From Candidatus Latescibacterota bacterium (lineage in GTDB: Bacteria; Latescibacterota; UBA2968; GCA-2709665), in assembly GCA_965208835.1 (NCBI GenBank), contig OZ242358.1, forward strand, positions 4,352,001 through 4,416,000: a stretch of DNA of 64,000 bases. The letters run 5' to 3'. Positions 12,643 through 31,782 of this stretch are shown piece after piece (the first letter of the stretch is position 1; every line of letters begins with the position of its first letter). The position numbers and the translations under genes are program-made. The notes under the pieces were generated by a model, which was not told where the DNA came from, ran no database searches, and worked only from the letters and a program-made list of their open reading frames with translations.

Positions 12643-12648
12643 AACCGG

Positions 12649-13644: not shown

Positions 13645-16569
13645 ATGCCTCGTAACGACGAACCAACCATTAATCGAGCATTGGCCGAAGTATTGCGCGG
13701 AAGGAACGCACGTTGGCAAAACACTGGAGAGTTACTAGGTGCTGAGCAACTAGACATTCTATGCGAGGGCGGCAAACCAGATATCTTTGTGGATGACCCA
13801 TGCGGTGCCGCCGTCATCATCGAAACCGAGTTTTTTCCGGGTAATCAGGTCGAATTTGAAGCCCGCAGCCGTCTCGGAAACACTACCCAAAATACGGGAA
13901 AGACGATTGAACAGACAATTGCAGTTCGTGTACCGGACAGTCTAAGGGAGGTTAACCAATCTAAACTTAACGAAGCTATCGAGGCATCGACTCTTGAGTA
14001 TTGTCTGTATTCTCTGCGATTGTCATCGGGCGGCATTGATAGGTGGCCACCATCGGGTTGGTTAAGTGGTAATGTAGACGACCTCGCACAACTGGCTGAA
14101 ATTGCAGCGGTATCGGAGCGTGCAGTGACAACCAGTCTAGAGACTCTCGAACAGGGGATCCGAACTTGCGCCGGACGCTTTGAACAAGGGACCAGTGATC
14201 GACTTCAAGTAAGACAGCGGATCGCGCAATACCTACATCAATCAGAAGGTGAGCAGACTTGGCGGATGGCGATGGCAATTGTGACAAACGCTATAACGTT
14301 TCATACCACAATCGCTGGTACACACGGCGTGAAGACTGTGGACGAACTGCGTCTGTCAGACGGTAACTTGCCAAAAGCGACCGTACTTAGAGAATGGGAA
14401 CGGATCCTTCATGAGATTAATTATTGGCCTATATTCCACATTGCCAGGCAAGTTATGTTGGTCGTACCAAATGGTCTGGCATCCGAGATTCTCGACGAGT
14501 TGGCCGAAGTTTCCAGTAAACTTGCCGCCACCGGGATCACCCGTTCGCACGATCTATCGGGTCGGACTTTTCAGAGGCTGATTGCCGACCGTAAATTCCT
14601 AGCGACATTCTATACACTACCTGTTTCGGCAACGCTTCTAGCTGAACTTGCCATTGCAAGAATCAACATTGATTGGTCTAAAGCTATAGACATATGCCGC
14701 CTTCGAATTGGTGATTTAGCATCAGGTACCGGCACGCTCCTCGCGGCAGCGTACCACAGCGTTCTTGCTCGCTATCGCCGCCGAGGTGGGGACGACAGCA
14801 CGTTACATACAAAGATGATGGAGAATTGTCTTGTTGCGGCCGATATTATGCCGGCTGCTACTCACCTTACGACGTCGATGCTTTCGTCCGTACATCCAAC
14901 ACGTACGTTTCGGCGGACCAAAGTTCATACTCTTCCGTATGGAAAAGCGACCGAGAATCCGATTCTCCCGATCTCCCTAGGTTCACTTGATTTCTGCCTT
15001 GCCGCGGCTGGTAGAGACCTATTTGGGACACGAATCGTCGTCGCGAGTGGCAAGGGCGAAGACGAAGACTTGGAGAGTCGTGATACGGAAAATGGCGAAT
15101 TCACTCTTGCCCATAAATCGCTTGACCTGGTCATAATGAATCCCCCTTTCACAAGGCCAACTAATCATGAGCTATCGAATGTCCCGGTACCGTCGTTCGC
15201 AGGATTTGCAACCACTCATGACGAGCAACGCGCGATGTCAAAGCAACTTGGACGCATGAAACGAAAATTCGAACACGATGCCGCAGGTAATGGCAACGCA
15301 GGCTTATCCTCGAATTTCCTGGACCTCGCGCACCTGAAGTGCCGCGCAGGGGGGATACTGGCGCTCGTAATGCCTCTTTCTTTGTTAAAGGGAGATTCAT
15401 GGGCTGCGGGTCGTGGTCTGCTAGCAAGATGGTATCGTGACATAACGTTGGTTACCATCGCCGCGGCGAAGAGTAATGAAAAGTCGTTTTCAGCGGATAC
15501 GGGTATGGGCGAGGTACTGGTGATTGCACGCAAGAGCCATGCCCTAAACGCAAGACCAAGCGGAACGAAGGCGTTGTTTGTGACGTTACACAGAAGGCCA
15601 ACTGCGACAGCAGAAGCAATGGAGATCGCCCGCCACGTGCATCGGGAGTACGAAACGCGATCAAGCTCTACTCGAATCTTTGTTGGTGATCAAGTTGTCG
15701 GTACGACGTTCCGAACTGAAATGCGAAACGGAGGCTGCGGTGGTGTACGTGATCTAGAACTTGCAGAGATCGCCATAGCTCTCGTGTCCGGTAAATTAAG
15801 GTTACCAACTGTTAATTTGCCACTTAAAATGTCGACTATTCCCCTTGGTCAATTAGGATCTCGAGGTCTAGTCCATCGTGACATTAATGGCATCAACAGC
15901 GATAGATCTTTTCGAGGTCCATTTGAGATTTATCCCGCATCGCACCAACCCACTTATCCAGCATTGTGGCGCCATAACGCCGCGCGAGAAAGACAGGTGC
16001 TTCTGTTTCCTGATTCTGAAGGGCACATCAGGCCCGGAATGGAAGGCAAAGCCGCTGAGGTATGGGGTACTGCCAGTCGACTCCACTTCAATCTAGATTT
16101 TCGCCTTAATTCGCAGAGCTTAGCCGCAGCTGTAACCGAAAACAGGACAATTGGTGGAACGGCATGGCCAAATTTCCGAGCTAAGAATCTGGATCATGAG
16201 TCGGCAATCGTCCTCTGGTCAAATACGACATTGGGTCTGTTCTTGTTTTGGTGGAACGCTAACCGACAACAGGCCGGCCGAGCTAGATTGACCATTACGC
16301 AACTGCCGTCGCTATTGGTTTTGGACGCAAGGCAACTTTCGTCGACTCAGATCGCCACATCGGATTCACTGTTCGACGAGTTTGCGAATCTAATGCTCCT
16401 GCCTGCAAATGAAGCATTCTGCGACGAAGCGCGGATTGCACTTGATGAGAAATTCCTTGTCCAAGTATTGGGGTTGCCTCACTCGATACTTGAGCCGTTG
16501 GGAGTTCTACGAGACAAATGGTGCGCCGAACCGTCGGTGCATGGTGGCAAGAGTACGAAGATTTCGTGA
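13645..16569 (+). CDS. Type IIG-like fused restriction endonuclease/N6-adenine methyltransferase
   Basis: N-terminal KPDIFV..VIIETEF (PD-(D/E)xK-like), FYT, DLASGTGTLL (motif I), VIMNPPF (motif IV), C-terminal specificity region; RBS GGAGAG before ATG 13645. Confidence 0.8.
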   Translation: MPRNDEPTINRALAEVLRGRNARWQNTGELLGAEQLDILCEGGKPDIFVDDPCGAAVIIETEFFPGNQVEFEARSRLGNTTQNTGKTIEQTIAVRVPDSLREVNQSKLNEAIEASTLEYCLYSLRLSSGGIDRWPPSGWLSGNVDDLAQLAEIAAVSERAVTTSLETLEQGIRTCAGRFEQGTSDRLQVRQRIAQYLHQSEGEQTWRMAMAIVTNAITFHTTIAGTHGVKTVDELRLSDGNLPKATVLREWERILHEINYWPIFHIARQVMLVVPNGLASEILDELAEVSSKLAATGITRSHDLSGRTFQRLIADRKFLATFYTLPVSATLLAELAIARINIDWSKAIDICRLRIGDLASGTGTLLAAAYHSVLARYRRRGGDDSTLHTKMMENCLVAADIMPAATHLTTSMLSSVHPTRTFRRTKVHTLPYGKATENPILPISLGSLDFCLAAAGRDLFGTRIVVASGKGEDEDLESRDTENGEFTLAHKSLDLVIMNPPFTRPTNHELSNVPVPSFAGFATTHDEQRAMSKQLGRMKRKFEHDAAGNGNAGLSSNFLDLAHLKCRAGGILALVMPLSLLKGDSWAAGRGLLARWYRDITLVTIAAAKSNEKSFSADTGMGEVLVIARKSHALNARPSGTKALFVTLHRRPTATAEAMEIARHVHREYETRSSSTRIFVGDQVVGTTFRTEMRNGGCGGVRDLELAEIAIALVSGKLRLPTVNLPLKMSTIPLGQLGSRGLVHRDINGINSDRSFRGPFEIYPASHQPTYPALWRHNAARERQVLLFPDSEGHIRPGMEGKAAEVWGTASRLHFNLDFRLNSQSLAAAVTENRTIGGTAWPNFRAKNLDHESAIVLWSNTTLGLFLFWWNANRQQAGRARLTITQLPSLLVLDARQLSSTQIATSDSLFDEFANLMLLPANEAFCDEARIALDEKFLVQVLGLPHSILEPLGVLRDKWCAEPSVHGGKSTKIS

Positions 16570-16724
16570 TTGGTTACGAGTTCATTCCTGTTCAACGTTG
16601 GCAACCCTACTGATCAAATCCACACATATGTGTTTTTAAATCATAGTTCACCATCCAGAAAATTCCGTTGGCAAAAAAGTTCAAGTTGATATACTGAGCG
16701 CCTTTATTTTGCAAGGAGATAAAC

Positions 16725-19700
16725 TTGGATTTTCCTGACAATTTGATCGAGACGATAAGTTCCGGGAACTGCGTACTCTTCTTGGGCGCTGGAGCTGCAC
16801 GTGAAGCCGGTGCCCCCGTCGGCAATGAACTTGCGACACTACTGGCAGACAGATTCGAAAAGCACGATATCTCTACACATAATTTGCGAGAATTCGTAGA
16901 TGTATTAGAAACGACTTCCGGAGTTGATAGACAGGAAATCGACAAAGCAATTGTAGAAACACTTCAAAAAACATCACCGTCAAATGCCCATCTTTTTCTA
17001 CCGGGTTTTGTTTGGCAAGCAATTTTCACCACTAACTATGATCGATTAATCGAAATTGCTTACGACATTTATCGAACTTCGCGAGGTGAGCCACCCTTAC
17101 AAAGGTGCAATGTCGTAAATGGTCTCCAAGATCAAGTGCGGTTAGACAATCGTTCGTCCGTCAACCTGTACAAATTGCACGGCTGCATTTCGTCAATAGG
17201 ACAAGGCAATCCATTGGTTTTGTCTTCGAGAGATTATAGGAATACTCGCAAGAAACGTCAGCGGATGTTGCGGACATTGAAAATGTTAGCGGTAGAACAT
17301 TCTATTCTGTTCATCGGCTATTCGTTCGCGGATCAATACTTGAGTGAGTTGTTGGATGACATTCAGCAAGAATCTCCGTATCATCACCACCGAACGATGT
17401 TTCTTGTAATTCCCGAATTAACGGCGAGTTATGAAGAGTATTTCCAATCCCGGAACTTTAAACACCTGTCTGGAACATTTGGTCAATTTTGCGAAAGTCT
17501 TTCGGAGCTTGTCGAGACGGAGGCCAGAAAAAAAGCACTTACTTCGAGGATTTCTTCTGTACAGACTGTTGGAGATCGCTCAGCTTCAATTCCTACGAGT
17601 CTTAGAGTATCTTTAGACTCGCAATTGGAGATATTCCGACCCGAAGGCAGCTTTAATAGGAACCCAAAGAGATTCCTATCAGGTTTTCCACCATCCCTAG
17701 ATGACTTGAAGAGTCGGAATGATGTAACACGTGATCAACAATTCGAGCTGACCGAAAGTGTCCGAAAGGCACTGCGTACGGAGGCCTACCTTAGGCCAAT
17801 AGTGATGGTACTTGGAGCGGGCGGCGCTGGGAAGAGCACTCTTGCTGCAAGAGTTGCTTACGATATCGCAGATCAGCGGCTGGCGATTTCATGTCGGCTG
17901 AAGAATCCAGAGCAATGGAATATCGATGAAATTGTAAACTTTGCGGACAGGATTCAAGCACCGGTGCTCTTCGTTTTTGATGGAATTGAAGTGCGAAGTT
18001 GGCTTCGAGCGACAAAGGATCTTCGTCAAGCATTGACAGTCGCACGCGTAAACGCCACACTGTTGCTATCATGCCAAAAGGCAGTTTGGAACGAATGCAA
18101 AGCTAAGATGGGCAGCCAAGATATCGAGGTGTTTGATCTCCAGGATCGCCTCTCGGAAATTGAGGCCGCTAGCTTGATAGAAAAATTGACCGAAGCGAAA
18201 CTGTTGACCACGGACGCGAAGATACGCCAGCGGGAAGTCTCGAATATTGTAAATGAATGCGACGGTCATCTAGTGGCGGCGCTACTGCAAATCGTGCAAA
18301 GCGGCAAATTCAAGGCTATTGTACTCGGTGAATACGGGAATTTGTCGCATAGAGCCCAAAAGGCATATCAATTTGTCGCTCTACTACACCAACATCGCAT
18401 TTCGATTCCGGATTATCTGCTCAATTCGGTTAGCACCAACAATTGGGATATTTTCGTTGATCAAGTTATTCGCGAAGAGTCTGAGCTTGTAATTATACAA
18501 GACCTTGACGCCACATCCGGCAGACTAAGGTTCCGGAGTAGGCATCCTTTGATCGCAAGGACGATAATCGACGCCACTGTGCCAAAATTTGAAGACAGAG
18601 TGAGGATGTATCGGCGGATTTTCGCGGAGTTAGCGGCGTCAGCTGAAGACCGATCATTTGTTCTTACACTATTGACGACCGAAAGCGTTAGACGAGAGAT
18701 TCGCGAGGAACAGTATTTGGAAGAATTCTTCGATCGTGCGTTGGATCTCTTTCCCGATGATCGGGCTCTAATTCTTCAATTTGGGCGCCACGAAAACAAC
18801 GCAGGGAACTACGAAAGAGCGAGGGAGATTTTGGAATGGGGGAAAAGCATCAACCCAAGAGACAGTCACATACTTCACCAACTTGGCGTCTGTGCTCAGC
18901 GCCGCGCGAGGCGCGTGAAAGAGAAAATCGACCCTCTATTACATGACTCGTTGATCCAGGAAGCCAGGTATTATTTCCGGCAGGTCCAAGAAATCGATCC
19001 AATTTCACAATACGGATACGTCTCGGAGGCTAGGTTGGCTATAAACCTCGCTAGAAATGAAAAAGATCAGGTCCAGAAATTCGCGCTGATTTCTGAAGCA
19101 GAATCGATCATTCGTAGTGGCCTACTTCTTGTAAGGGAAGACGACCACGACATTTTGAGAGGTTGCGAGGCAGAACTATCCGACGTGGCCGGAGATACCA
19201 GTGAAGTGCTCCATCGACTGTGCGCTTTGGACGAAAAAGAAACCTTAGGATACGGGTCCTTATATCATCTTTGGGCAGCTTGTCTTGTTCGTGTGGGAAA
19301 TGTTGACGAAGCAATTGAAGTGATCAAGCGTGGCGTTAAGGACTTCCCGGGCGACGAGATGCTAATTCAGTTGATGCTTCAGATTCTCGAAGGATTTCTA
19401 TTTCGGGCTCGCAGTCGGGATGTTGCTAGTGAGTTTATCGGATATCTCCAGCGAGAGACAGAGAACATGAATATATGGATAGTCTTCCTTAAAGGCGTAG
19501 TGGAACTCTACGACACTCAATATAGGTTAGCAATGGAGTCATTCATGGAAGTGCGTCGACGTATGAACTCTCGAGCGTCAACGCGAATTCGGGATTATCT
19601 TAGGGACGAGTCCGGACACGAAATACAAAAGAGGGGGATCATTGAAATTGGACGATATGGGCGACCTTGGATAAAGGATGTAGGCACTGGTATTAAGATG

Positions 19701-19820
19701 CCCGTCGACAATTCTCAATTCTGGGAAAGGTCCGGCAAACCTCGCGATTGCGTCTTTCTGATGGGATTATCCCTTATGGGTCCAAGAGCATCGATAATCG
19801 AGAAATATCAGAATGGCTAG
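16725..19820 (+). CDS. SIR2-STAND NTPase-TPR protein (Avs/AVAST type V-like)
   Basis: SIR2: FLGAGA, TTNYD, YKLHG, FIGYS; Walker A GAGGAGKS, Walker B VLFVFDG; SRHP winged-helix motif; TPR-like helices; RBS AAGGAG before TTG. Confidence 0.8.
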   Translation: MDFPDNLIETISSGNCVLFLGAGAAREAGAPVGNELATLLADRFEKHDISTHNLREFVDVLETTSGVDRQEIDKAIVETLQKTSPSNAHLFLPGFVWQAIFTTNYDRLIEIAYDIYRTSRGEPPLQRCNVVNGLQDQVRLDNRSSVNLYKLHGCISSIGQGNPLVLSSRDYRNTRKKRQRMLRTLKMLAVEHSILFIGYSFADQYLSELLDDIQQESPYHHHRTMFLVIPELTASYEEYFQSRNFKHLSGTFGQFCESLSELVETEARKKALTSRISSVQTVGDRSASIPTSLRVSLDSQLEIFRPEGSFNRNPKRFLSGFPPSLDDLKSRNDVTRDQQFELTESVRKALRTEAYLRPIVMVLGAGGAGKSTLAARVAYDIADQRLAISCRLKNPEQWNIDEIVNFADRIQAPVLFVFDGIEVRSWLRATKDLRQALTVARVNATLLLSCQKAVWNECKAKMGSQDIEVFDLQDRLSEIEAASLIEKLTEAKLLTTDAKIRQREVSNIVNECDGHLVAALLQIVQSGKFKAIVLGEYGNLSHRAQKAYQFVALLHQHRISIPDYLLNSVSTNNWDIFVDQVIREESELVIIQDLDATSGRLRFRSRHPLIARTIIDATVPKFEDRVRMYRRIFAELAASAEDRSFVLTLLTTESVRREIREEQYLEEFFDRALDLFPDDRALILQFGRHENNAGNYERAREILEWGKSINPRDSHILHQLGVCAQRRARRVKEKIDPLLHDSLIQEARYYFRQVQEIDPISQYGYVSEARLAINLARNEKDQVQKFALISEAESIIRSGLLLVREDDHDILRGCEAELSDVAGDTSEVLHRLCALDEKETLGYGSLYHLWAACLVRVGNVDEAIEVIKRGVKDFPGDEMLIQLMLQILEGFLFRARSRDVASEFIGYLQRETENMNIWIVFLKGVVELYDTQYRLAMESFMEVRRRMNSRASTRIRDYLRDESGHEIQKRGIIEIGRYGRPWIKDVGTGIKMPVDNSQFWERSGKPRDCVFLMGLSLMGPRASIIEKYQNG

Positions 19821-20956
19821 GCGATTGGTCTAATTCGATGGAATTATTCTGCGGAGATTGGATCCCGGGCTTTCCGGTTAGAAATATACATCGAGGTGCT
19901 TTGATGTATTGATTCGACCCAAGTTATACAATTACGTAAATCTCGTTGCCACATACGCGCATAGGAGAGTAACAATCATGCCGGCGGACCCGACACATCG
20001 GACAACGCATGAGAAGCATGAAAAACCTACCCCACAGTTGATGCAACTGCAGACCATGGAACGCTTGGAGCATCCGGAGCAAGACGATTCACAACTGAGT
20101 TCTGACCGACTGCCGAAATCGGATGCAAGCTCAAGCGGTTGAAACTCGGATGCTGACATTTCGCTGAACAGCCATCCAGATAGAATAACTGTGCAAGAGT
20201 GAGGAACTCGACGCGCAAATGAAGGCACTTGAATACAGATTCCGGGACTCCCCACTCAACATAGATCGTGTACACGAAATCGTACGGGTATGGCTCTCCA
20301 AAAGACACCCCATTCTAGCCCAACTTGAACGATAATGAAGTCGTAATACAAGAATTGCGGTATAGACTTTGTTCTCTTCAAGTGCAGATTGACAACTAGG
20401 AGGATCGACTAAAGGAAAAACAGGCATAATTTACTAAGATGAAAGATGAATGCCTGTTTCACGTTATTCAACGGCGGTTGCTCGGTCATCAGGAAGTTCG
20501 TGCGAGATTCGCCCCCCAAGTCCATTCTGCTACTTTGCACTTTGGATCGCAATCCCAATGCCCGATTGGATCATTATACCGAGCGGTTAACCGGTAACGC
20601 TTCGCACGTGCCGACAGACCGGGAACCGGCCTCTTGTTCCTGAAGGTCGCGTGTGAGACCGCCACAACCAAAGACCCTGAGTGTCCTTGCCTCCAACATC
20701 GGTTCTCCACCTCATCTTGTCCTTTCCGGCCAATATACGAAGATTAACTCAGTGTGGAAGTTGCCTTACTCTATATTCGCAGGTAGGTGGTTTGATACTA
20801 AAACCAACGACCCTAGTCGTTGCGCCAAAGGATCGCCTGTACTCTTCACAGTTCTTCCAAATCGATGCGTCGTAGTGCAAGGTCCGTACAGAATGTTACG
20901 GTTACAAATTGGTGTGTATTTCCTCAATTTCACGCATATCTTCCCGGGATTTCAAA

Positions 20957-22315
20957 ATGCGGGAACGTATTTGCTTATATAAACGCTTTGAAGGACGTTT
21001 ATCCGTTAATCCATCGATTACGTCCAACATAATTTCGTACCGCGGGAACCGCGATGCTCCTGGATTTCGATGGATGAAATACAAGGAGGGCTTCTCAACT
21101 AGCCTAGTCGAAAGCCTGATTGGAGAAATTCAGCCTTCATCGGTCTTGGACCCGTTTTCGGGCATAGGTACCACGCCACTTGTAGCGGCCGGAATGGGAC
21201 TGCGAGCTACTGGCATAGAGATCCTGCCTGTCGCAGTACTTGTGGGGCGGGCGATTGCGCTCGCTGCCAATGGATTGCGTCGCGATGCGTTTATAAAGGT
21301 CGCATCTGCCATGCTGAAGCACCTCAGGACCGAAAAACAAGCGGGGTCGGAACATGCCTTTCCCCATGTCGGCATTACGGAATATGCTTTTCCGTCAGAG
21401 ACAGAACTCGAACTTGCCAAAGCGCGTGAATTCATTAGTATCGTCGACGACCACAGTATACAAACTATGCTTAACCTCGCATGTATGAGTGTTTTGGAGT
21501 CTGTGAGCTACACAAGAAAAGACGGACAGTATCTGCGATGGTACAACCAATCACGTCGGAATGTGAAGACACGGGCAAAGAAGAGTTCGATCCCACGGTT
21601 CATAAACGCGCTCGATTTTCGCCTTTCCCAGATGGCAGAGGACATCATACCGTTGACTGTACGTTATGGGAGCGGTGAATCTAACCTGATTGCTGGGTCG
21701 ACTCTTGAGCACCTTCGGCGTATGCCTGAGGCTTCGTTTGACTTGGTAATCACATCTCCACCCTACCCAAACCGTTACGACTATACAAGGATTTATGCGC
21801 TGGAACTGGCTTGGCTCGGATATAATCAAGATGCAATCAAGTCCCTACGCCAAGAATTGTTGTCTGCCACAGTCGAGAACAGATCCAAGATAGATTGGCT
21901 GGTGAAAAATTACCGCCACGCATCACTTTTGCCATCGGCAATCCGAATGTATGAACAGCAAAGTGCAATGCACGAAGCGTTGAATATACTGCGGTCGTAC
22001 AGAAAAGAGTTAAGCAATCCAAATGTAATTCGTATGCTTGAAGGATACTTTATTGAGATGGCTATAGTAGTTGCCGAATTAGGACGAATTGTGAGTCCCG
22101 CAGGGAACGTAATTGTCGTAAGCGATAATGTTCAATACCATGGTGAAGAATTCCCAGTGGACTTCATCCTGTCCGACTTTGCAGAACAGTCGGGATTCGA
22201 ATGCAAACACATCTGGACGCTACCACGTGGAAAGGGTAACTCGAGCCAACAAATGGGCAGATTTGGACGCCGGGAGTTGCGAAAGTGTGTTTACTGGTGG
22301 TCAAGATTGAAATAA
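20957..22315 (+). CDS. N4-cytosine DNA methyltransferase, AvaI/BsoBI-like, no cognate REase adjacent
   Basis: W.KYKEGFS, LDPFSGIGTT, ITSPPY.NRYDYTR.YALEL, GKGNSSQQMG; start uncertain (20909-20957). Confidence 0.85.
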   Translation: MRERICLYKRFEGRLSVNPSITSNIISYRGNRDAPGFRWMKYKEGFSTSLVESLIGEIQPSSVLDPFSGIGTTPLVAAGMGLRATGIEILPVAVLVGRAIALAANGLRRDAFIKVASAMLKHLRTEKQAGSEHAFPHVGITEYAFPSETELELAKAREFISIVDDHSIQTMLNLACMSVLESVSYTRKDGQYLRWYNQSRRNVKTRAKKSSIPRFINALDFRLSQMAEDIIPLTVRYGSGESNLIAGSTLEHLRRMPEASFDLVITSPPYPNRYDYTRIYALELAWLGYNQDAIKSLRQELLSATVENRSKIDWLVKNYRHASLLPSAIRMYEQQSAMHEALNILRSYRKELSNPNVIRMLEGYFIEMAIVVAELGRIVSPAGNVIVVSDNVQYHGEEFPVDFILSDFAEQSGFECKHIWTLPRGKGNSSQQMGRFGRRELRKCVYWWSRLK

Positions 22316-22395
22316 GGTTTCTTGGATCACCAATTGAAAAACTCCGTGGCTCCAACTCGGCCACAAGAAGAGCTAATAAGCCGGTTACTGACAAC

Positions 22396-23499
22396 ATGTA
22401 CGGAACACAATCTCTGACGAAGGTCGTATACCTTTTGGGTGCGGGTGCATCCCACGCCTGCGTCTCGCACGTTGGTTGCCCACATGGAATATTAATGAAG
22501 CATCTCGGACAACCCTTAACGGAAAAACTGCGTACGTTGCTGCAAGATGGATATTTGGACGATGACAGCCTAAACAACCTAGTGAATTCAGTTATTGATG
22601 AGACAACAGACTTTGAGCAAGTAATTACGTTTTTGGGTGAGGCCCCTTCCGAAATCCATCGTAGATTCGCCAACGAGATGAAGAGTGCTTTTGAAGCTGT
22701 GCTTCGGAGTCAGCTGCAACGCATACGTACAGAAATCAAAGACGATCCCATTGAACTATATAAGGTGTTAATCGACTTGTACAATATTGAGGAATTTCCG
22801 GAAAAACTCGAAGGAATTATTACGATAAATTACGACGAATACATCGAAAAAGCTATTGAACAGGTTAGCACTTGTTCTATTGACTTCGGATTCCGTGTAC
22901 AACCATCCAATCCAAACACCCTTAAACTTAGGCTGCTGAAACTTCATGGTTCCTTTGGTTGGCAGGACACTTGGCCGACTGCACGAGGATGTGATGGCAA
23001 TTCAACCCTTTGGATTCCGCCTGGTATTCAGAAAGCAAAACAGGCATATCCATTCAATGTCTTGTGGGGGTTGGCTCGTGAGATGTTATCTTGCAATGTC
23101 TTGCGCATCATTGGATGTCGCTTGGGACCGAATGATTGGGATCTGATTTCATTGCTGTTCACAATGCGTCACGTCAATTACGAAGAACGTCCCAGGATCG
23201 AAGTCATTGATGCTCCATCTCATGTGGAAGATTTGAAGCAGACATATCCTTATCTAGAACTAAGGTCAATATTGGAAGTTGACCGAATCGGCAGTAAATT
23301 TGTCGCGGAGTTTACGGGAACCTCGCCTCGCAGATTTGACGAGCTCGACGAAGAAGAACGAGCCGAAGTAATAAGAGCAGCTGGAACCGACCGCAATTGG
23401 TTCGAACTTTGGTTGAAATTGCTAGCTGAGACACTTTACGTTGAACTTGGTTCTGTTTTAACTACAACGAAAACGGTCGAAGCGTTCTTGGAATCCTAG
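22396..23499 (+). CDS. Stand-alone SIR2-like protein
   Basis: VVYLLGAGAS, ITINYD, LLKLHGS, WIPPG..K, IIGC; start moved to MYGTQ. Confidence 0.8.
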   Translation: MYGTQSLTKVVYLLGAGASHACVSHVGCPHGILMKHLGQPLTEKLRTLLQDGYLDDDSLNNLVNSVIDETTDFEQVITFLGEAPSEIHRRFANEMKSAFEAVLRSQLQRIRTEIKDDPIELYKVLIDLYNIEEFPEKLEGIITINYDEYIEKAIEQVSTCSIDFGFRVQPSNPNTLKLRLLKLHGSFGWQDTWPTARGCDGNSTLWIPPGIQKAKQAYPFNVLWGLAREMLSCNVLRIIGCRLGPNDWDLISLLFTMRHVNYEERPRIEVIDAPSHVEDLKQTYPYLELRSILEVDRIGSKFVAEFTGTSPRRFDELDEEERAEVIRAAGTDRNWFELWLKLLAETLYVELGSVLTTTKTVEAFLES

Positions 23500-23514
23500 G
23501 AGGAGCGAGTAATT

Positions 23515-24678
23515 ATGGAAAAGGAAGTTATTTCTTGGTCAGTGAAGGAATTGAGGGGACAATTTAGCTTGATAAGCTTTCCAGAATACCAGCGAGAGCC
23601 TAATTTGTGGACACTTGTCGAAAAACAACGGCTAATCGACTCGATGATTAGACACTTTGACATTGCGTCTCTATATCTCTATCAGCATAACGATGGTGCT
23701 ATGGACTGTGTGGACGGGCGTCAAAGAATAGGGTCGATAATGTCGTTCTTGGGTGAGAACAACGCCAACAGTGACACCAACTTTCCGTTTCGGCCATTGA
23801 ACGAAATCCTTCAAGAAGAATGTCCACCGTACCAGTCGTTAGCAGGCAAGACATTTAACGAGATCGAACAGCTGCGGAAAACTCACGATGACCCTACGGC
23901 AGCAAAGTTCGTGGATACGTTCTTAGGTTATCCGCTAACCGTGATCATGTTGTCTGACAGCAAGGCTGGGGAAGAGTTCAATCTTCAATTTACCAGGTTG
24001 AACTTGGGGACAATAATCAACTCTGGTGAGAAACTCCATGCTATGGTTGGTGACCTCAGAGATGCCTGTTTCAACCGTCTTGGCAATCATCCCTTTCTCG
24101 AAGGCACGAACATACCAACACGACGTTTTGCGCGTGAGCAGGTGGCAGCACAGATTCTAGCTCAAGTTTTTTCGTTCAGTGCCAACGGAGTATATACGAG
24201 GATTAGGCATTTTGACCTTCAACGGATATTTAAGGAACATCGTAAGTTCACCGACGACCAAGAGGAATTGGTTGAACAAATACGCAAGCTTTTTGATCTC
24301 TTGCGTGAAGCCTTTATTGGAATCGAAACTCTTCGAAATCGAGCGATAACAGTTTCGACTGTTCTACTCGCATGGCAATCGAAATTGGATGGCTCAGGAC
24401 AAGCATCGCAACTCGCGGAATTCATTGACGAATTCGTACATCGACTCAATTGGCAAGTTAAGAAAGGGCTGGACCTAGACCGCGAATACCTCTACCTAAC
24501 GACGTTTCAACACAACATCACACAGGCTTCCTCTGAGAAGTCTTCGATTGAAGCACGCGCTAAGACGTTGCAAGAGGAATTCTTTCGATGGCGCTGTGAC
24601 GGCGAACTGAAAGGTGACAGTGATTGGAGATTAAAGAATCCAACTAGTGATCCGGGTAGAGAATCCCGTTCATCGTAG
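23515..24678 (+). CDS. DUF262 (ParB/Srx-like, GmrSD N-terminal) protein without an obvious HNH domain
   Basis: PEYQRE..W, LIDSM, VDGRQR, FTRLN.G motifs; RBS AGGAGG overlaps the SIR2 stop. Confidence 0.85.
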   Translation: MEKEVISWSVKELRGQFSLISFPEYQREPNLWTLVEKQRLIDSMIRHFDIASLYLYQHNDGAMDCVDGRQRIGSIMSFLGENNANSDTNFPFRPLNEILQEECPPYQSLAGKTFNEIEQLRKTHDDPTAAKFVDTFLGYPLTVIMLSDSKAGEEFNLQFTRLNLGTIINSGEKLHAMVGDLRDACFNRLGNHPFLEGTNIPTRRFAREQVAAQILAQVFSFSANGVYTRIRHFDLQRIFKEHRKFTDDQEELVEQIRKLFDLLREAFIGIETLRNRAITVSTVLLAWQSKLDGSGQASQLAEFIDEFVHRLNWQVKKGLDLDREYLYLTTFQHNITQASSEKSSIEARAKTLQEEFFRWRCDGELKGDSDWRLKNPTSDPGRESRSS

Positions 24679-24961
24679 AATGGAAGTTTAGCCGGATAAT
24701 TGGTGGTATTTGGAAGACCGGTAGCGTCTTGTGTTCGTTTATTGGCCGCATTCGGATGGTTGATTTCGGTCGTGGGAGGAGAATTTATGAGTTCTCGATT
24801 ACGGTTAAAGGTATTATAGAGAAGGGCAAGGATTATCAAAGATCCGTCGGTCCGCGATTCTCCCGCTCTGTTGACGATCCATGTATCTACCTTCAGCGGC
24901 ATTCGGGACCTCCTCAGTTTGTGTTTGTACGGCAATCCACCCTCTGCTCTGGCCCGTTACA

Positions 24962-25837
24962 TCAATTCTCAATGTCTTCACGCTTGTTGATGAGATACGC
25001 GGCAAAACACGCGCACGCTCCGAACATGAAGACGGCATCATTGATGTCTACTTCGGGAGCGCTTTCGGCAAGCAGCGCATGGCGGATGCCGCTTTCATCG
25101 TTTGTATACCCGTACAAATTGATGAAAGCCGCCTTCAAAGCTGGATGATTTAAGACACCAGCCGATTCGAGAGATTTTAGCGCTGGCCCAAGCGACTTGC
25201 CTGCTTTGGGGTCTATCGTCCGTGCCACGGATTCGACCGCGTGGATACATTCTCTAACTGTATCTGCAAATCGTCCCTCGTTGATAGCGGTAGCTGCAGC
25301 ACGCATATGGCTCCTTGCGCCTAATGGAGCCTTCTCTGCGATCGTTTCGATTGCCTTCTGCGTGGCTCTACCATATTCCTCACTGACGCGGGGTATGACT
25401 GTTGGTTTACCTCCGATTTCTTGGATAGCATAGGCGAGACGACCTTTTCGAAATGCATCTTCCAATACTTGACGAAGCATAGCGGAACAGTGTTTGTGAC
25501 TAACCATAAACTCGACTAACGTAAGGAGTTCGTGATATTTCCCTTCGAGAATTATATCTCTCAAATACCCACGGTGGCGAATAGGGGTATGTTGTATTTG
25601 GTCGTGGGGCCATTGATGAACCATGAAAAAGTAGCTACGAATAATCATAGAGATAGATGCGTCTTTGTAATAACGATCGTCATCAATCGCTTCATGACGA
25701 ATCGCCGTATCAACAACGAGCCAAACTATGTGTCTGAAATCCTTGGAAACATACCCCAATCGTATAATTCCAGGCAGTGGCGCAAGTCCCTCTCGCTGAG
25801 AGAATGTAAGCCTGCGCTTTTCCTCGCTCGGTTTCAT
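24962..25837 (-). CDS. AbiJ-type N-terminal domain plus HEPN-like protein
   Basis: TFSQREG N-terminus, IHAVES, LYGYTNDESGIRHAL C-terminal motif; RBS AAGGAG. Confidence 0.8.
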   Translation of the reverse strand: MKPSEEKRRLTFSQREGLAPLPGIIRLGYVSKDFRHIVWLVVDTAIRHEAIDDDRYYKDASISMIIRSYFFMVHQWPHDQIQHTPIRHRGYLRDIILEGKYHELLTLVEFMVSHKHCSAMLRQVLEDAFRKGRLAYAIQEIGGKPTVIPRVSEEYGRATQKAIETIAEKAPLGARSHMRAAATAINEGRFADTVRECIHAVESVARTIDPKAGKSLGPALKSLESAGVLNHPALKAAFINLYGYTNDESGIRHALLAESAPEVDINDAVFMFGACACFAAYLINKREDIEN

Positions 25838-26227: not shown

Positions 26228-27303
26228 TTAAGTTTCTTCGGACCCAAGCGTCTCCGCCGCTTCTGCCAATGCCGCCATCGATGTGCCGTCCCGCGACACA
26301 TTGCACATGTCCCGCAGCCTGTTCAGCCCGATGGGCATCTTGTAATACTTGCAGATCATTCCCAGACACGCCGCCCCGCAGTCGGACTGATCGTTTTGCT
26401 TCAGGAGCGGAAAACGAAACGACGTTGATGTCTTGTGTTGTTCATCAGATGTCCTTGCGATCGAGACATCTGATGGGACGCCGTCAGCCGCAACGGCGTT
26501 GTTCACTACCGCCGCTTCCGCGTGGACGTGACTTCCGCCCGATTGAATCTCGCGGGACTGAGACCTGTCCGATCCAGATTCCCGGTACAATTGCCGGGCT
26601 ATTTCCCTCAAGGGCGTAAATTCAGGAATTGAATGTTCCAGGCTTTCCAGGTCGGATTTATCCAGAAAATAGATCACGCAGTGGACCCGGCTGCGGATCG
26701 TCCGTGACTCACCACCCTTGGAATCCGTCTCTTCGAAAAAATCCCCGGCGTCCAGAGTATGCGAGCTGCCGTCCTAAAAAACACGTCCAACCTGCCTCCG
26801 CCCACTATGCAGAACCGGCCGAGCGAGCGACCGGGTTCGACAAGCGTCGTTCCTTCTGAAACCTCTTCGCGTTTAAAGCTCTGAAAAAGCTTTCCCATGT
26901 CCGCCCCGGAAACGGACCCCTTCAGAAACCTCGTGAAGTCCCGATACGCGATATTTGCGACCTGATCCTTCAGATAGGCTTCCAGCTCCGGCTCCGCCTT
27001 CAACACCTTGAAGAACCCTTCGCGCGACACCTTCAGCACAACGGAATCCTCCGCGGCTCGCACCGTCGCCCGATGTCCCTGCGCCGCCAATAGCGCACCC
27101 TCGCCGAAATGATCGCCGCAATAGAGAAATCCTACGGTCTCAGGTTGACCGTCCGCATTCGGCTTGATCACTCGCAGCCGGCCCGACTTTACCATGTGGA
27201 ACGCGTCGCCAGGCGCCCCTTGTTCAATTACGACCTCTCCGAAACGAAACCGAACGGATTCCGGCTGATTCGACAACTGAGAAAAGCGGGTGAAGACGTC
27301 CAT
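26228..27303 (-). pseudogene. Peptidase-containing ABC exporter (cNMP-cNMP-C39), frameshifted and 3'-truncated
   Basis: cNMP domain (GDHFGEGAL, RATVRA); frameshift next to the T6 run at 26776-26781, continuing DGSSHTLDAGDFFEE..VIYFLD; C39 motif QNDQSDCGAACL; similarity stops at AETLG with no membrane or ATPase domains. Confidence 0.85.
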
Positions 27304-27653
27304 TGTTGCTTTCCCGTGAATGGAAGGATTATCGGCGTGTCCGGATGCAGGTCGACGCCCGACTGGATGCGGTTCGTTTGTTATCAGGGATTCTTCCTGC
27401 CGGAGACCCAGAATTTTCCGGCTCCGAGGGGCAGCCCTCTACACGGTGCTCAGACTCCAATCAACATTACCGTTCCTGAAGTCCGTGGATTCTTGCCGGT
27501 ATATACCTTATTTAATATCTATATATACTATATATAATATTCTTATGCGCATTGTCGACCTATCGTGAGGCCTGAGGCCCCCTTACCGATGTGAGGAGAT
27601 TGGAGCCACGAGCAACCGATCAGACCCTACACTGCATCCAGCCGGGGTTCGGC

Positions 27654-28496
27654 TTATGGTTCCTGGTGCTCGGAAATGCGTTGGGTCTCTTTCGAAATCC
27701 GGCTAAACCACCACAGTCCAAGTGCTGTGAGCGCTATCCCTGATACACTCCACCACCAGGGATTGAATGCAACTTCGTTAATGTCTCCTGAAATGTCCAG
27801 ATGATGCGTGTAAAAATGCAGCATGGTCACAGCGATGAGGTTGTTCAGAGCGTGCCCGAACAACGCGGGCAACAGTGACCCGGTACGGATTACCCACCAG
27901 GCCAATACCAACCCGGATAGAATGATAGGCACAAGATGCCAGAGGTCCAGGTGCAACATACCGAAAAGAACTGCTGACCAGACAATTGCATGAATTCTTG
28001 TATAGTTCGCCAACAGGCCGCTCAGGATTATCCCCCTGAAAAGCAACTCTTCGCCCAATGGTGCGACTAAGACTGCCCCGAACAACGCAGACAAGAAGGA
28101 TGTTCTGCTCAAGATTCCCGAACGATAGACTTCCTGCATCCACTCCGGCATAGGTACGATGCCAATCACGACTTTCATCAATTCAGAATCAAGCATCCCC
28201 AGGCCCACTACTGAAATTGCAACGCAGGGCCATACCCGCAAATCGAAATCTCTGTTGAAGAGACGCCGAACGTAATCCCAATCCAGATCGGTTCGACGGT
28301 ACACGTAACCCAGAATTACGGCGAAGCTCACCAATGCCAGGGTTCCCAATGCGAAATCGTCCTCGAACTGCCATCCCGAAATCGCCGCAGCCAATGCCAG
28401 CACTACGAACGCGAGCATGAGCAGAAACAGTAACCAGATCGTCTGCTTCAAGTCCGGATATGCCTTAGAGATCTCGTCAGAATCTGTGGCCGTCAT
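27654..28496 (-). CDS. CPBP (Abi/CAAX) intramembrane metalloprotease, paralog 3
   Basis: AYPDLKQ N-terminal motif, EELLFRG, FGMLH, HALNN; start could be 28526. Confidence 0.9.
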   Translation of the reverse strand: MTATDSDEISKAYPDLKQTIWLLFLLMLAFVVLALAAAISGWQFEDDFALGTLALVSFAVILGYVYRRTDLDWDYVRRLFNRDFDLRVWPCVAISVVGLGMLDSELMKVVIGIVPMPEWMQEVYRSGILSRTSFLSALFGAVLVAPLGEELLFRGIILSGLLANYTRIHAIVWSAVLFGMLHLDLWHLVPIILSGLVLAWWVIRTGSLLPALFGHALNNLIAVTMLHFYTHHLDISGDINEVAFNPWWWSVSGIALTALGLWWFSRISKETQRISEHQEP

Positions 28497-28516
28497 AGAT
28501 CGATCGCAGTCTGCGT

Positions 28517-28849
28517 TTACTGGCATGATTCGTCCTGCTTTCTTTTCGTACCGTCAGGCCGTCTCAGTCCGTCGGTGACGTTAGAATCCTGGCCTGGTTC
28601 AACTCCGCCGGGACCCGACTCAAATAACCCGCGGACTGCGGTCACCATTCGCGCTGCAGCTACATAGAACTTTTTTCGGAAGACTATAAACGAGACTGCC
28701 TGAACAACCAGGACCGCCATCAGGATCGCAAGATCGAATTGAATGACGTATCTGAGAATCAGCAAAGCAGGCACAACGGAGAATAACACGTATAATACGG
28801 CCGCGAGAACCCAACCTCTCCACGTTCCCCCCGAGAGGACATCCTTCAT
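28517..28849 (-). CDS. Small membrane protein with two predicted TM helices, possible immunity factor
   Basis: 110 aa, two hydrophobic stretches, RBS GGAGG, sits between CPBP genes. Confidence 0.65.
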   Translation of the reverse strand: MKDVLSGGTWRGWVLAAVLYVLFSVVPALLILRYVIQFDLAILMAVLVVQAVSFIVFRKKFYVAAARMVTAVRGLFESGPGGVEPGQDSNVTDGLRRPDGTKRKQDESCQ

Positions 28850-28948
28850 CCAGAACCTCCAGTGTTGTGTCTATTGGTCTTTTCTATGAATCAATGGACG
28901 ATTGTCTGATTTGTTTGCGTCACAATCTAAGAACCCGGCGATCAGCGG

Positions 28949-29863
28949 TTAGCCGCCATCTCCTGGCGTATCACCCGTCTCAATCCTATTGGAGCTGGCT
29001 AATTGAGGTTTGTTCGATATCCGATGAAACCACCAGAGTCCAAACGCCGCCAATATAACGCCAGCGCCTGTCCACCACCATGGATTGAAAACCACGTCGT
29101 TCAGGTCCTCCGAGACCGCGACATAGGGAACGTCAACGCGCATAAACGTCGTGGATAGCAGATTGTTAAATGCATGTCCAACAACCGCAGGCCACAGAGA
29201 TCCCGTGCTTATCGTCCACCACGCAAACAAAATGCCATATATAAAGGCAGGCGAGAATTGCCATGGGTTCAGATGACTCACGCCAAACAGTATCGATGAC
29301 CAGATAATCGCACAAGTCCTGGAATGGTTCGACAACAGGCCAAACAAGATTATACCTCTAAAGAGAAGCTCTTCGACATACGGTGCGACAATGGCGGCGT
29401 GGAAAAGGGCTGACGGGAAGGAAGTTTCGCGCCCAACCGTTGATTTAATGAGTTCCTGGAATAATTCTGGCATAGGAATTACGGAAATTACAACTTTGTT
29501 CAATTCAAAGAGAACCAACGACGTTCCGCAAATCGACATTGCGACGCCGGTCCAGAGTTGCCAATCAGAACTTGCATTCCCTGGAAACAAGAGACTTGCC
29601 CACCGTCGATCCGTACGACGGGAAATGTACAATAATACTAGCAGATAAACTGCCAATTTGGTAATGCCCAGCAGGTAGTTGTTATGTTCAAGGGGTTGGC
29701 TACTGATGATACTTGCTACGTAAATGAGAATTCCGAATCCCGACTCCGTCAGGGTCAACAGTACAAGCAACCAAATGGCCTGCTTTAGGTTCGGATACGC
29801 CATTGAGCTCTCGCAAGATTTCCTATTCGGGTTTAACTGATCGCCGCCCGCGCGTTCAAACAT
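28949..29863 (-). CDS. CPBP (Abi/CAAX) intramembrane metalloprotease, paralog 4
   Basis: MAYPNLKQ, EELLFRG, FGVSH, HAFNN; RBS GGAGGTG. Confidence 0.9.
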   Translation of the reverse strand: MFERAGGDQLNPNRKSCESSMAYPNLKQAIWLLVLLTLTESGFGILIYVASIISSQPLEHNNYLLGITKLAVYLLVLLYISRRTDRRWASLLFPGNASSDWQLWTGVAMSICGTSLVLFELNKVVISVIPMPELFQELIKSTVGRETSFPSALFHAAIVAPYVEELLFRGIILFGLLSNHSRTCAIIWSSILFGVSHLNPWQFSPAFIYGILFAWWTISTGSLWPAVVGHAFNNLLSTTFMRVDVPYVAVSEDLNDVVFNPWWWTGAGVILAAFGLWWFHRISNKPQLASSNRIETGDTPGDGG

Positions 29864-29900
29864 GTCACCTCCCGGTTCCTTTCAATAGCGTCTGGCTGTC

Positions 29901-30521
29901 TCAATCTGGCGGGCATTGCCCTTCAGGCCAGACAAAGCAACCAGGTTCAGACGGGTGATCTTGAATCAAGGCATCCTTTCCATATCGGCGTAGCTTCAAG
30001 AAAATCATGATATCTCCAGAACACACAGAGACTGTCCCGCTGAAAAGCAACAGAGACCAGATGGCGGGATCCAACCAGAACAACAAACCGGCAGCCAGTG
30101 TCGTAACGATCAATGGAAAGATCAGGACGATTCGGTGAACGCGAATTGTCAGTGGCCTATCGTAGTGACAATAGAAAGCCGCAAATTTCCAATTAGCCCC
30201 GAATCGTATCGAATTGAATGGCACCTTGCCCCATTGCAACGCGGCAACGGCGTGCAATGCTTCGTGAACTGCAATCAGCAAGACAACACTTCCGATTAAC
30301 ATCCACCTTTCTACGTTTTCCAGACTGAACTGAATCTTCAATTGCGACAAATGTGCCCCCAAGAAGCAAAAATTGAACGCCAAAAAAAACAAGATGATTC
30401 CAAGAGTGATCGCATTGACCTTGCTCACACGGATTTCGATGACCTCCCGGCCCATCTCCTTGGACGGCTCTTGACCTGCGGAGCACATTTCATTTTCCGC
30501 CGACATCGGATTCTCCATCAT
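29901..30521 (-). CDS. DUF3267-like membrane zincin metallopeptidase
   Basis: VHEALH (HExxH), FG....AFYCH, SGD, IQDHPSEPG. Confidence 0.8.
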   Translation of the reverse strand: MMENPMSAENEMCSAGQEPSKEMGREVIEIRVSKVNAITLGIILFFLAFNFCFLGAHLSQLKIQFSLENVERWMLIGSVVLLIAVHEALHAVAALQWGKVPFNSIRFGANWKFAAFYCHYDRPLTIRVHRIVLIFPLIVTTLAAGLLFWLDPAIWSLLLFSGTVSVCSGDIMIFLKLRRYGKDALIQDHPSEPGCFVWPEGQCPPD

Positions 30522-30715: not shown

Positions 30716-31021
30716 TCAGACTGACAGATTCGACAGGCCGTCGGCCATGCCACTGGTCAGTTGATCGTAGGCATCCGAGACGAAATTTACCGCATCCTTA
30801 GCCCTATCGTAGTACCAAATGGCGGCTTCAACGACATCCTGAGGTCTTGTCACTGCTACGACCACGAGCCCTGCCACAATCCCTACGACGACGGGATGTC
30901 CTCCCGAGACTTGTGCCATCGTATGCTCACTCAGATCTTCCCGTCTTGCAGGCAACGCCTGACAGGAGATGAGCACGCTGTCTCTATCGGTCGCCGCCGG
31001 ATAAGCCAATGCTTGTGTCAT
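30716..31021 (-). CDS. Double-glycine leader precursor peptide P4 (41-aa leader, 60-aa core)
   Basis: CQALPARREDLSEHTMAQVSGG/HPVVVG..; RBS AGGAGG. Confidence 0.8.
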   Translation of the reverse strand: MTQALAYPAATDRDSVLISCQALPARREDLSEHTMAQVSGGHPVVVGIVAGLVVVAVTRPQDVVEAAIWYYDRAKDAVNFVSDAYDQLTSGMADGLSNLSV

Positions 31022-31240
31022 GATGTCCTCCTGGAGAGTTATTCCTATTTATCGTTTTTCAACCCAATGGCCTGAATCTCGTGTTACGGAGACGGTGCCT
31101 GTTTATGGAGGCTATTGGGTTCGAGAATCGTGCTTTGCTCTACGGTTTCGTAAGAGCTTCGTGACCATATCTGCGAAGTCGCCGGCATCGGCAGTCGAGA
31201 TCGAGAAACAGAACAGGTTACGTCCTGGGCGGCGTGACCA

Positions 31241-31441
31241 TCAGTCCGTTTCGTCGAAGTATTCGAAAATGGCTTCTGCAATTGCGCTCGCCATTGCCGT
31301 CAAATTAGTGCCCATCCCGATGGGTATGAACCCTCCCGATGTCGTCGCCATCTCATAACTGGCTAATGCGATTTCCCGTCCTGGGAGTTGCGCACAAGCC
31401 ACAGAACCGCGCACTGGCATTGATTGAATTCGATCGGTCAT
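31241..31441 (-). CDS. Double-glycine leader precursor peptide P3 (37-aa leader, 29-aa core)
   Basis: CAQLPGREIALASYEMATTSGG/FIPIG..; RBS AGGAGGTG. Confidence 0.8.
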   Translation of the reverse strand: MTDRIQSMPVRGSVACAQLPGREIALASYEMATTSGGFIPIGMGTNLTAMASAIAEAIFEYFDETD

Positions 31442-31578
31442 TTTGTCACCTCCTATCTTCACCCTTTCAGAAATTCGTAAGTATGCCCTGTGGACTTCGC
31501 TTGCAGATCATCAAAGACCACGCATTTGCAGCGGTGATCGCAAAGGGAATTTGCTTTGCGTCAGTTCAGGTTCCAAGG

Positions 31579-31782
31579 TCATTCCTCGTCGTCGAAGTAC
31601 TCGACAATGGCCTCAGCAATTATTTTGCTAACGTACAGGATCATGAAGGAAGGACCTGTGGGTAACATGAGACCTCCCGATGCATTCATCATCTCACGAC
31701 GTGCCAGGCCGATTTCCCGTCCTGGAAGTCGGGTGCAGGTCACGGCGCCGTGTACTGGCATCGATAGAACTCGATCAGTCAT
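31579..31782 (-). CDS. Double-glycine leader precursor peptide P2 (37-aa leader, 30-aa core)
   Basis: CTRLPGREIGLARREMMNASGG/LMLPT..; RBS AAGGAG; clear paralog of P3. Confidence 0.8.
   Translation of the reverse strand: MTDRVLSMPVHGAVTCTRLPGREIGLARREMMNASGGLMLPTGPSFMILYVSKIIAEAIVEYFDDEE

Follow-up and report, generated by a model that had tools for sequence, protein, structure and literature searches.

The 64,000-nucleotide (nt) stretch of Candidatus Latescibacterota bacterium contig OZ242358.1 from position 4,352,001 to 4,416,000 (hereafter the window) carries three consecutive genes, encoding a DNA methyltransferase (MTase), a stand-alone SIR2 protein and a ParB/DUF262 protein, that from their sequences look like an undescribed anti-virus system. 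The catalytic motifs of the three proteins are intact, the order of the SIR2 and DUF262 genes is strictly kept in related genomes and an MTase recurs beside this pair. From sequence and from protein models, we place slightly better than even confidence in the trio being one restriction-modification-like module devoid of a nuclease, where the MTase would mark self, the DUF262 protein would read the mark and SIR2 would deplete NAD+. The features of the trio in the window are as follows.

20957..22315, + strand: DNA methyltransferase of the N6_N4 family, class A; 452 amino acids (aa), ATG start, from the translation.
22396..23499, + strand: stand-alone SIR2 protein; 367 aa, ATG start, from the translation.
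23498..23503, + strand: AGGAGG ribosome-binding site, read from the sequence, 11 nt ahead of the DUF262 ATG.
23515..24678, + strand: ParB/DUF262 protein; 387 aa, ATG start, from the translation.

An initial annotation made from the sequence alone had described this order with an 80-nt gap between the first two genes, and the open reading frame (ORF) listing, the sequence and the translations agree with it; the spacer, checked in the ORF listing and in the sequence, runs from 22316 to 22395 and is exactly 80 nt long. It had also placed the DUF262 ribosome-binding site over the SIR2 stop, and the AGGAGG at 23498-23503 does overlap the stop codon TAG at 23497-23499. This overlap suggests that translation of SIR2 and DUF262 is coupled. 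A GTG at 22285 would provide an alternative SIR2 start, giving a 404-aa protein (form P0004 of the protein database) and an overlap of 31 nt with the MTase gene, and the 367-aa form is favoured because of the N-termini of the homologues.

At the protein level, the window MTase matches the Pfam family N6_N4_Mtase (2.8e-7) and, along its full length (residues 3-449), the PADLOC model MTase_II PDLC03224 (6e-109); its matches in NCBIfam are all below threshold. The initial annotation called it AvaI/BsoBI-like, a putative label that would make M.AvaI and M.BsoBI (CYCGRG) its nearest characterised relatives. Its motif I, DPFSGIGT (residue 65), precedes motif IV, SPPY (residue 267). SPPY marks N4-cytosine amino-methyltransferases and adenine enzymes have D/NPPY, a rule with exceptions, and because of this motif the enzyme is predicted to produce N4-methylcytosine (m4C). 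No restriction endonuclease family was detected among the neighbouring ORFs of the window with Pfam and PADLOC, in keeping with the annotation, in which the MTase is followed by SIR2 and not by its endonuclease.

The SIR2 protein belongs to Pfam SIR2_2 (1.8e-7) and displays the motifs GAGAS (residues 15-19), N145-Y-D and K182-L-H184-G-S. Among 24 homologues, N145, Y146, D147 and K182-S186 are invariant and GAGAS is nearly so; the invariant N and H are the catalytic residues used by the NAD+ hydrolases (NADases) of defence systems. A profile of the family, compared with PDB sequences, aligns its NYD and HG motifs with those of KomC (8zsf) and PsSIR2 (8w9l) of SIR2-HerA, with E values of 1.5e-3 to 4e-3 over about 50-70 residues. 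The AlphaFold2 model, with a predicted local distance difference test (pLDDT) of 82, finds its closest fold in the E. coli SIR2 of SIR2-HerA (E 1e-8), followed by DSR2, and PADLOC v2 gives weak generic SIR2 matches (best 1e-6, none above 26 bits). Taken from these motifs and from the model, SIR2 is predicted to be an NAD+-consuming effector.

The DUF262 protein matches Pfam GmrSD_N (2.2e-13) and has no Pfam match to DUF1524/HNH, in line with the earlier remark that it lacks an HNH motif. Its motifs YQR..W (residues 25-32) and DGRQR (67-71) are conserved in 30 homologues, where Y25-Q-R..W32 and D67-G-R-Q-R71 are invariant or nearly so, together with the invariant residues R204, R231, D234, S281, Q337, E341 and R348 of the C-terminal part. 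The two motifs singled out in the annotation, KLHG of SIR2 (K182-L-H184-G) and DGRQR of the DUF262 protein (D67-R71), are therefore both invariant or nearly so across homologues. PADLOC assigns residues 20-354 to positions 66-377 of the 385 of the NsnA model (6.2e-19, 66 bits). The AlphaFold2 model (pLDDT 87) combines a ParB-like N-terminal domain with an all-helical C-terminal half, and its best fold matches are BrxU (7p9k), SspE and a chain of DndBCDE-DndI; the template modelling (TM) scores with BrxU and SspE are 0.18-0.28, low values that are consistent with a partial overlap of the structures. The family profile found no match among PDB sequences. Altogether, sequence and model predict an NTP-dependent DNA sensor. 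Prediction of a complex between SIR2 and the DUF262 protein, which would be in contact in the proposed module, returned a score of 0.00 and a mark of 0.32, values that speak neither for nor against binding. Seven DUF262 homologues (P0147, P0150, P0165, P0166, P0180, P0186 and P0243; 58-62% identity) are 485-494 aa long instead of the usual 385 aa; the additional stretch of about 100 aa may be a new domain or may come from a wrongly called start that runs into SIR2.

Conservation of the pair was followed in a survey restricted to one genome per species, which returned 60 loci. True relatives of SIR2 (26-64% identity) are present in 28 of them (L001-L028), and the 32 loci having a distant SIR2 only (L029-L060) served as controls; gene content was read by running Pfam on 103 flanking ORFs and 19 further proteins, plus tblastn. 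In 27 of the 28 loci the gene that immediately follows SIR2 encodes a DUF262 relative; L018, whose contig ends inside SIR2, is the exception, and a DUF262 gene of the window type is found in none of the 32 controls. The same gene order in 27 of 28 related loci indicates that the arrangement exceeds chance. The distance between the SIR2 stop and the DUF262 start ranges from -64 to +20 nt, with a median of 5 (24 loci including the window), and the identities of both proteins to those of the window co-vary with r = 0.98 (24 loci). That the two genes might not be conserved together had been set beforehand as the refutation of the proposed pair; these values show them to be conserved together. At a larger scale, SIR2 has 884 relatives at E <= 1e-3 in 90%-clustered proteins and 95 representatives at E <= 1e-30 in 50%-clustered proteins, and the DUF262 protein has 804. 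The best 120 of the 884 SIR2 relatives share 51-66% identity and have lengths of about 360-370 aa; three of these 120 carry a source name, 'hypothetical protein', and the others carry none. At least 36 of the best 120 SIR2 matches share a longest contig of identical size with one of the best 120 DUF262 matches, as counted by eye.

The 28 loci are distributed over seven phyla: Chloroflexota (14), Actinomycetota (6), Acidobacteriota (3), Pseudomonadota (2) and, with one locus each, Gemmatimonadota, Saccharimonadota and Halobacteria, the last in an archaeon. Most of them sit on large chromosomal contigs, and SIR2 homologues are absent from 72,556 plasmid and 50,697 phage records (E 1e-10). The family is almost wholly confined to uncultured Chloroflexota, Actinomycetota and Acidobacteriota, and this, together with the absence from plasmid and phage collections, would explain why screens of cultured bacteria missed it.

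A second regularity concerns the MTase. By Pfam and tblastn, an N6_N4 MTase accompanies the pair in 26 of the 28 loci, and in the two that lack it, L014 and L018, the contig ends within 0.5 kb of the pair or inside it. Among the control loci only 1 of 32 (L045) matches any of three MTase-class queries in tblastn. SPPY is present in all 25 locus MTases examined and in that of the window, the L003 MTase, which is in pieces, having been left out. The suggestion of the initial annotation that the MTase possibly marks self gains support from this presence of an SPPY N6_N4 MTase in 26 of 28 loci versus 1 of 32 controls. The position of the gene with respect to the pair is variable.

Directly upstream, same strand: 15 loci, plus the window.
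Downstream, same strand: 4 loci.
Downstream, opposite strand: 4 loci.
Upstream, opposite strand: 1 locus.
At 2.4-5.3 kb from the pair: 2 loci (L011 and L020).

In L011, five genes on the + strand (1722-6841) lie between the class-B MTase (361-1677) and SIR2 (7001-), among them a superfamily 1 helicase-like gene (AAA_11/AAA_12; 5127-6452) and genes for three proteins without a Pfam match; these genes could represent the insertion of another system or a longer version of the module. Just past the downstream MTase of L010, an 851-aa protein (11171-13726, - strand) shows weak matches to HerA/DUF87 and TraG/TrwB-like ATPases. The MTases themselves fall into three classes.

Class A: the window and 7 loci (L001-L005, L007, L027).
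Class B: 15 loci (L006, L009-L013, L016, L017, L019, L021-L026), 22-29% identical to class A.
XhoI-type class: 4 loci (L008, L015, L020, L028); short proteins with motif IV ahead of motif I.

Homologues of the window MTase beside the pair are 38-64% identical to it in L001, L002, L004, L005 and L007 and 31% identical in L027. The L027 locus, from Saccharimonadota, has next to its class-A-like SPPY MTase a C5 cytosine MTase (PF00145, 6e-55; both within 9098-11839, - strand), so that two cytosine methylases stand by the pair.

Each of the four XhoI-type MTases adjoins an endonuclease of the XhoI family PF04555 (E 1e-56 to 5e-95), described in Pfam with the site CTCGAG, and consequently belongs to a complete restriction-modification system. 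No two of the four loci agree in gene order and strand, and they occupy four places on a SIR2 tree (27 rows, quick IQ-TREE), at least three of them forced by well-supported branches. On the same tree the MTase class changes 7 times, compared with a minimum of 2 and a shuffled mean of 10.5, and 1 of 200 shuffles was as low. No complete restriction-modification type other than the XhoI type was seen alongside the pair in the surveyed loci. This recurrent capture of a single restriction-modification type argues that the pair may need a particular mark. Especially informative is L020, nested on the SIR2 tree among the class-B loci L022, L024 and L025. Its class-B MTase is reduced to the first 33 codons upstream of SIR2 (88% identical to those of L022), SIR2 and DUF262 are intact, and an XhoI-type SPPY MTase with its endonuclease lies 2.4 kb downstream of the pair. 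Read from the sequence, L020 argues for a natural MTase replacement, which would imply that the MTase is functionally needed. A further ORF of this locus (9784-11097, 437 aa) was considered as a hidden MTase and ruled out, as it lacks SPPY and matches nothing in Pfam or PADLOC.

These loci bear directly on an alternative to which we grant a low probability, namely that SIR2-DUF262 is self-contained, responding like a Type IV system to modified phage DNA or else to some other cue, and that the MTases are neighbours in defence islands without a link to it. Sensing of modified phage DNA occurs in GmrSD, BrxU and probably Dazbog. According to a review, all characterised DUF262 proteins read modified and not unmodified DNA (PMC10952713). 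The changing position and strand of the MTase, the possibly broken MTase beside an intact pair in L002 (described below) and the several other defence genes in the island of the window would likewise suit independent neighbours. However, such neighbours would hardly yield an MTase in 26 of 28 loci when control SIR2 loci have it in 1 of 32, nor SPPY in every MTase examined, nor a single type of complete restriction-modification system arriving four times independently; the replacement in L020 argues for a functional need, and a Type IV methylcytosine reader placed by a cytosine MTase would risk self-attack.

Returning to the restriction-modification-like module, its operation can be proposed as follows. 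The MTase would write m4C on target sites of host DNA as the self mark. The DUF262 protein, in which a ParB-type NTPase would be joined to a helical domain that binds DNA (the architecture of Menshen NsnA, of DndB and of the front part of SspE and GmrSD), would bind DNA, use NTP and check for the mark. Unmarked DNA, such as that of an incoming phage or plasmid, would lead this sensor to activate the co-translated SIR2, which would then hydrolyse NAD+ and stop the growth of the infected cell. Methylation might also act in the opposite direction, as in an SspE-like variant where self methylation may license the sensor. The marker would be interchangeable, since any MTase writing the right mark could serve, be it encoded in the operon or supplied by a nearby XhoI-type system. 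As the sensor is strongly conserved across MTase classes, its sequences suggest that the classes write the same mark or that the sensor reads m4C as such. If the AvaI-like label of the initial annotation is right, the three classes could share a site, given that the AvaI site CYCGRG contains CTCGAG. More tentatively, and with confidence well short of even, this could be the first restriction-modification-like immunity without a nuclease arm, with a DUF262 protein reading m4C, possibly at CTCGAG-type sites, SIR2 carrying out abortive infection, and a plug-in MTase drawn from three classes, the XhoI type having been captured at least 3 times.

Several points weigh against this module. One conserved sensor can fit three MTase classes only if they share a site or if m4C is read as such, and no sign of a shared target site appeared in the avoidance of CTCGAG, CCCGGG or CYCGRG relative to Markov expectation, in samples that are small; for CTCGAG, the observed-to-expected ratios are 0.99 (window), 0.81 (class A), 0.84 (class B), 0.68 (XhoI group) and 0.64 (control loci). 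Methylation of CTCGAG in different archaea is reported to be of the m4C, N6-methyladenine (m6A) or 5-methylcytosine (m5C) type (PMC11033074). Because the homology between classes A and B is distant (22-29% identity), the uniform SPPY may stand for perhaps two or three independent events and not 26. The sole SIR2_2+GmrSD_N fusion found (P0124, 732 aa, with a single member on a single contig) begins at SIR2 residue 34, so that the 33 residues before it are missing, and its junction resembles a frameshift read-through, which makes it weak evidence, and it was dropped as Rosetta-stone proof. For every member of the trio, the functional assignment draws on sequence and models. The damaged copies of the module also bear on it.

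L003: MTase in three pieces; DUF262 frameshifted.
L005: MTase frameshifted; DUF262 with a stop at codon 252.
L009: MTase intact; DUF262 split by insertions, with an IS1595 transposase alongside.
L026: MTase intact; SIR2 frameshifted.
L002: MTase with an out-of-frame stretch and three stops at about codons 35-60; SIR2 and DUF262 intact.

The MTase and DUF262 are both damaged in L003 and L005, which would speak for the module if it reflects co-decay but may be a correlated sequencing error, both being metagenome-assembled genomes (MAGs). L002, with a possibly broken MTase by an intact pair, is either a counter-example to the need for an MTase or a long-read assembly error. Sequencing error is possible in all five loci because all are MAG assemblies, and co-decay was dropped as a statistical argument in view of L002 and of the MAG origin of every damaged locus. 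Mobile-element genes were also recorded in these and other loci: phage-type integrases adjoin the module in L003 (3889-4440), L012 (4360-5163) and L013 (6115-7433), a DDE_3 transposase gene is found in L003 (9913-11025), the IS1595 transposase of L009 lies between SIR2 and DUF262 (8204-9136), and an rve integrase fragment is present in L016 (10683-11000).

A further explanation, a little less probable again than a self-contained pair, is that SIR2-DUF262 acts as a guard or back-up of methylation immunity and fires when methylation fails or is blocked by a phage, through anti-restriction or breakdown of S-adenosylmethionine, without inspecting DNA. Its repeated association with complete XhoI-type systems, in which a nuclease is already there, would agree with this, as would an abortive NADase effector; effectors of this kind are established for DSR, SIR2-HerA and Thoeris and are typical of second-line defence. 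Nevertheless, the MTase is an orphan in 22 of the 26 loci, with no recognisable endonuclease to guard. Clearly improbable is the idea that addiction is the main role of the trio, which would stabilise mobile DNA through post-segregational killing, where loss of the MTase would free SIR2 and any anti-phage effect would be secondary or absent. Integrases or transposases by L003, L009, L012, L013 and L016, the low-GC island that holds the window copy and the patchy distribution over seven phyla fit such a module, in opposition to the lack of homologues in the plasmid and phage records and to the large chromosomal contigs that carry most loci; addiction is, moreover, compatible with a defence role and not exclusive of it. 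Least probable of all is that SIR2 ADP-ribosylates or deacylates a target instead of depleting NAD+, or that the DUF262 protein, whose architecture equals that of DndB and NsnA, is a DndB-like DNA-binding regulator of the MTase operon, since, despite the low similarity of SIR2 to proven NADases in the PDB profile comparison, its nearest fold and its invariant N and H are those of defence NADases, and for a regulator the strict coupling to SIR2 observed in 27 of 28 loci would be superfluous.

The trio of the window is located in a defence island, within a low-GC stretch (0.45-0.53 at about 10-32 kb, compared with about 0.6 elsewhere in the window). Its nearest companions are the following.

13582-16569, + strand: 995-aa ORF without a Pfam match; its language-model neighbours are N6_Mtase/Eco57I-like clusters (high-scoring), and PADLOC gives weak MTase_II matches at residues 554-617.
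16725-19820, + strand: SIR2-nSTAND5-TPR protein of 1031 aa, its SIR2 part Avs5/ThsA-like.
24962-25837, - strand: gene of the PDC-S32 candidate system, 291 aa; PADLOC 2.2e-47 over the full length, Pfam AbiJ_NTD4 below cutoff.

The first two (13582-19820, + strand) constitute a second pairing of a methylase with SIR2 in the same island. The PDC-S32 gene converges on the DUF262 gene, and an overlapping ORF (24729-25148, + strand) has no matches. Outside these genes, four CAAX/Rce1-like protease paralogues (10122-11012, 11061-12098, 27654-28526 and 28949-29863) flank the defence genes and have repeated DNA segments in common (families D1, D2 and D4). Among the paralogues (10122-12098 and 26228-30521) are found a 149-aa fragment that holds just the beginning of a C39 peptidase domain and two proteins, one cNMP-binding and the other DUF3267 zincin-like. 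The region resembles a cluster for bacteriocin-type export and immunity that received the island by insertion. A repeat search gave no insertion-site repeats at the island borders, only those of the CAAX-protease paralogues. A 133-nt direct repeat (family D3; 31326-31799, 74% identity, 341 nt apart) falls in a run of small ORFs on the + strand (31020-32159) without Pfam matches. A scan of 19700-25200 for promoters and terminators did not rise above shuffled sequences, with 5 promoter-like signals versus 6.5 expected and 6 terminator-like signals versus 4.9.

If the proposed module is real, it would join epigenetic self-marking to abortive infection by NAD+ depletion and so link two branches of immunity. 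It would also give a new output to DUF262 sensors, which until now have, to our knowledge, been linked with nucleases or RNases, and would point to a possible dedicated immune role for m4C, for which we know of few. The interchangeable MTases would, in addition, offer a natural test bed for the matching of sensor and mark.

With regard to known systems, a match to an already named one had been set beforehand as a second refutation, and none of those compared captures the trio: PADLOC v2 returns the weak SIR2 matches and NsnA only, and full-text literature searches found no description of a SIR2+DUF262 system, in agreement with the initial annotation, to which none was known. A 2023 review names GmrSD, BrxU, SspE, Menshen, Dazbog and PD-T4-2 as the only DUF262 systems (PMC10952713). 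Menshen (NsnABC) is close in that the NsnA model covers nearly the whole DUF262 protein and the same ParB-DUF262 plus helical 'ParBDB' architecture is present, although the NsnA score is modest (66 bits) and SIR2 takes the place of the NsnB ABC-ATPase and the NsnC nuclease; neither NsnB (ABC/AAA_15 ATPase + DUF3696) nor NsnC is found among the window ORFs of 13.5-26.6 kb, nor did either appear in the regions flanking the 28 loci. The Menshen study (PMC12065111) describes this ParB-DUF262 and DNA-binding 'ParBDB' arrangement as common to DndB, GmrSD and SspE, assigns DNA binding to NsnA-C, and takes the orphan methylases that occur by Menshen as a hint that the DUF262 domain might target unmodified DNA. 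In SspABCD-SspE and in Dnd with DndB, a modification of host DNA is likewise the self mark read by a DUF262 NTPase that controls an effector, but the mark is a phosphorothioation made by a multi-gene pathway, unlike the base methylation by a single MTase predicted here, and the DUF1524 nickase domain of SspE is missing from the trio, whose effector is the separate SIR2 protein. The Type IV enzymes GmrSD and BrxU share the N-terminal DUF262 with QR..W and DG(R/Q)QR, BrxU (7p9k) being the best structural match; the trio differs in having no HNH/DUF1524 nuclease and in its linkage to an MTase, which modification-dependent enzymes normally avoid. As for the remaining DUF262 systems, PADLOC v2, which includes Dzb models, listed none of Dazbog (DzbAB) for the trio proteins at E <= 0.1, and PD-T4-2_A matches the DUF262 protein (9.4e-10) over the DUF262 domain only (residues 22-167), with no PD-T4-2_B match among the scanned proteins.

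On the effector side, SIR2-HerA (Nezha), DSR1/DSR2, Thoeris ThsA and Avs5 share the SIR2 fold and the same N...H catalytic pair, whereas the trio has no HerA, long C-terminal sensor region, SLOG, TIR or STAND, and has instead a DUF262 partner and a linked MTase. Despite the good fold match to SIR2-HerA, no HerA/DUF87 gene lies in the window neighbourhood, and Pfam and PADLOC on the ORFs of 13.5-26.6 kb gave no HerA, TIR, NsnB or NsnC gene. The SIR2 protein has 367 aa compared with about 1000 aa or more in DSR1/DSR2, and scores 14 bits with NCBIfam Dsr2, whose cutoff is 1400; for Thoeris, neither the trio nor its neighbours hold SLOG or TIR, and no ThsA model in PADLOC matches SIR2. Type II restriction-modification provides the likeness of an MTase with motifs I and IV and predicted self protection, and in four loci an XhoI-type MTase is shared or borrowed, but there is no recognisable nuclease arm (no cognate endonuclease by the window MTase, and one only in the four XhoI-type loci) and the predicted outcome is NAD+ loss and not DNA cleavage. 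BREX, a nuclease-free methylation system, also relies on an MTase predicted to protect self, and Pfam detected no BREX gene such as PglZ in the window neighbourhood. As each defining partner was sought and not found, the trio is a member neither of the modification-keyed systems (Ssp/Dnd, restriction-modification and BREX) nor of those with a SIR2 effector (DSR, SIR2-HerA and Thoeris); by analogy, it would rather resemble the former joined to an effector of the latter.

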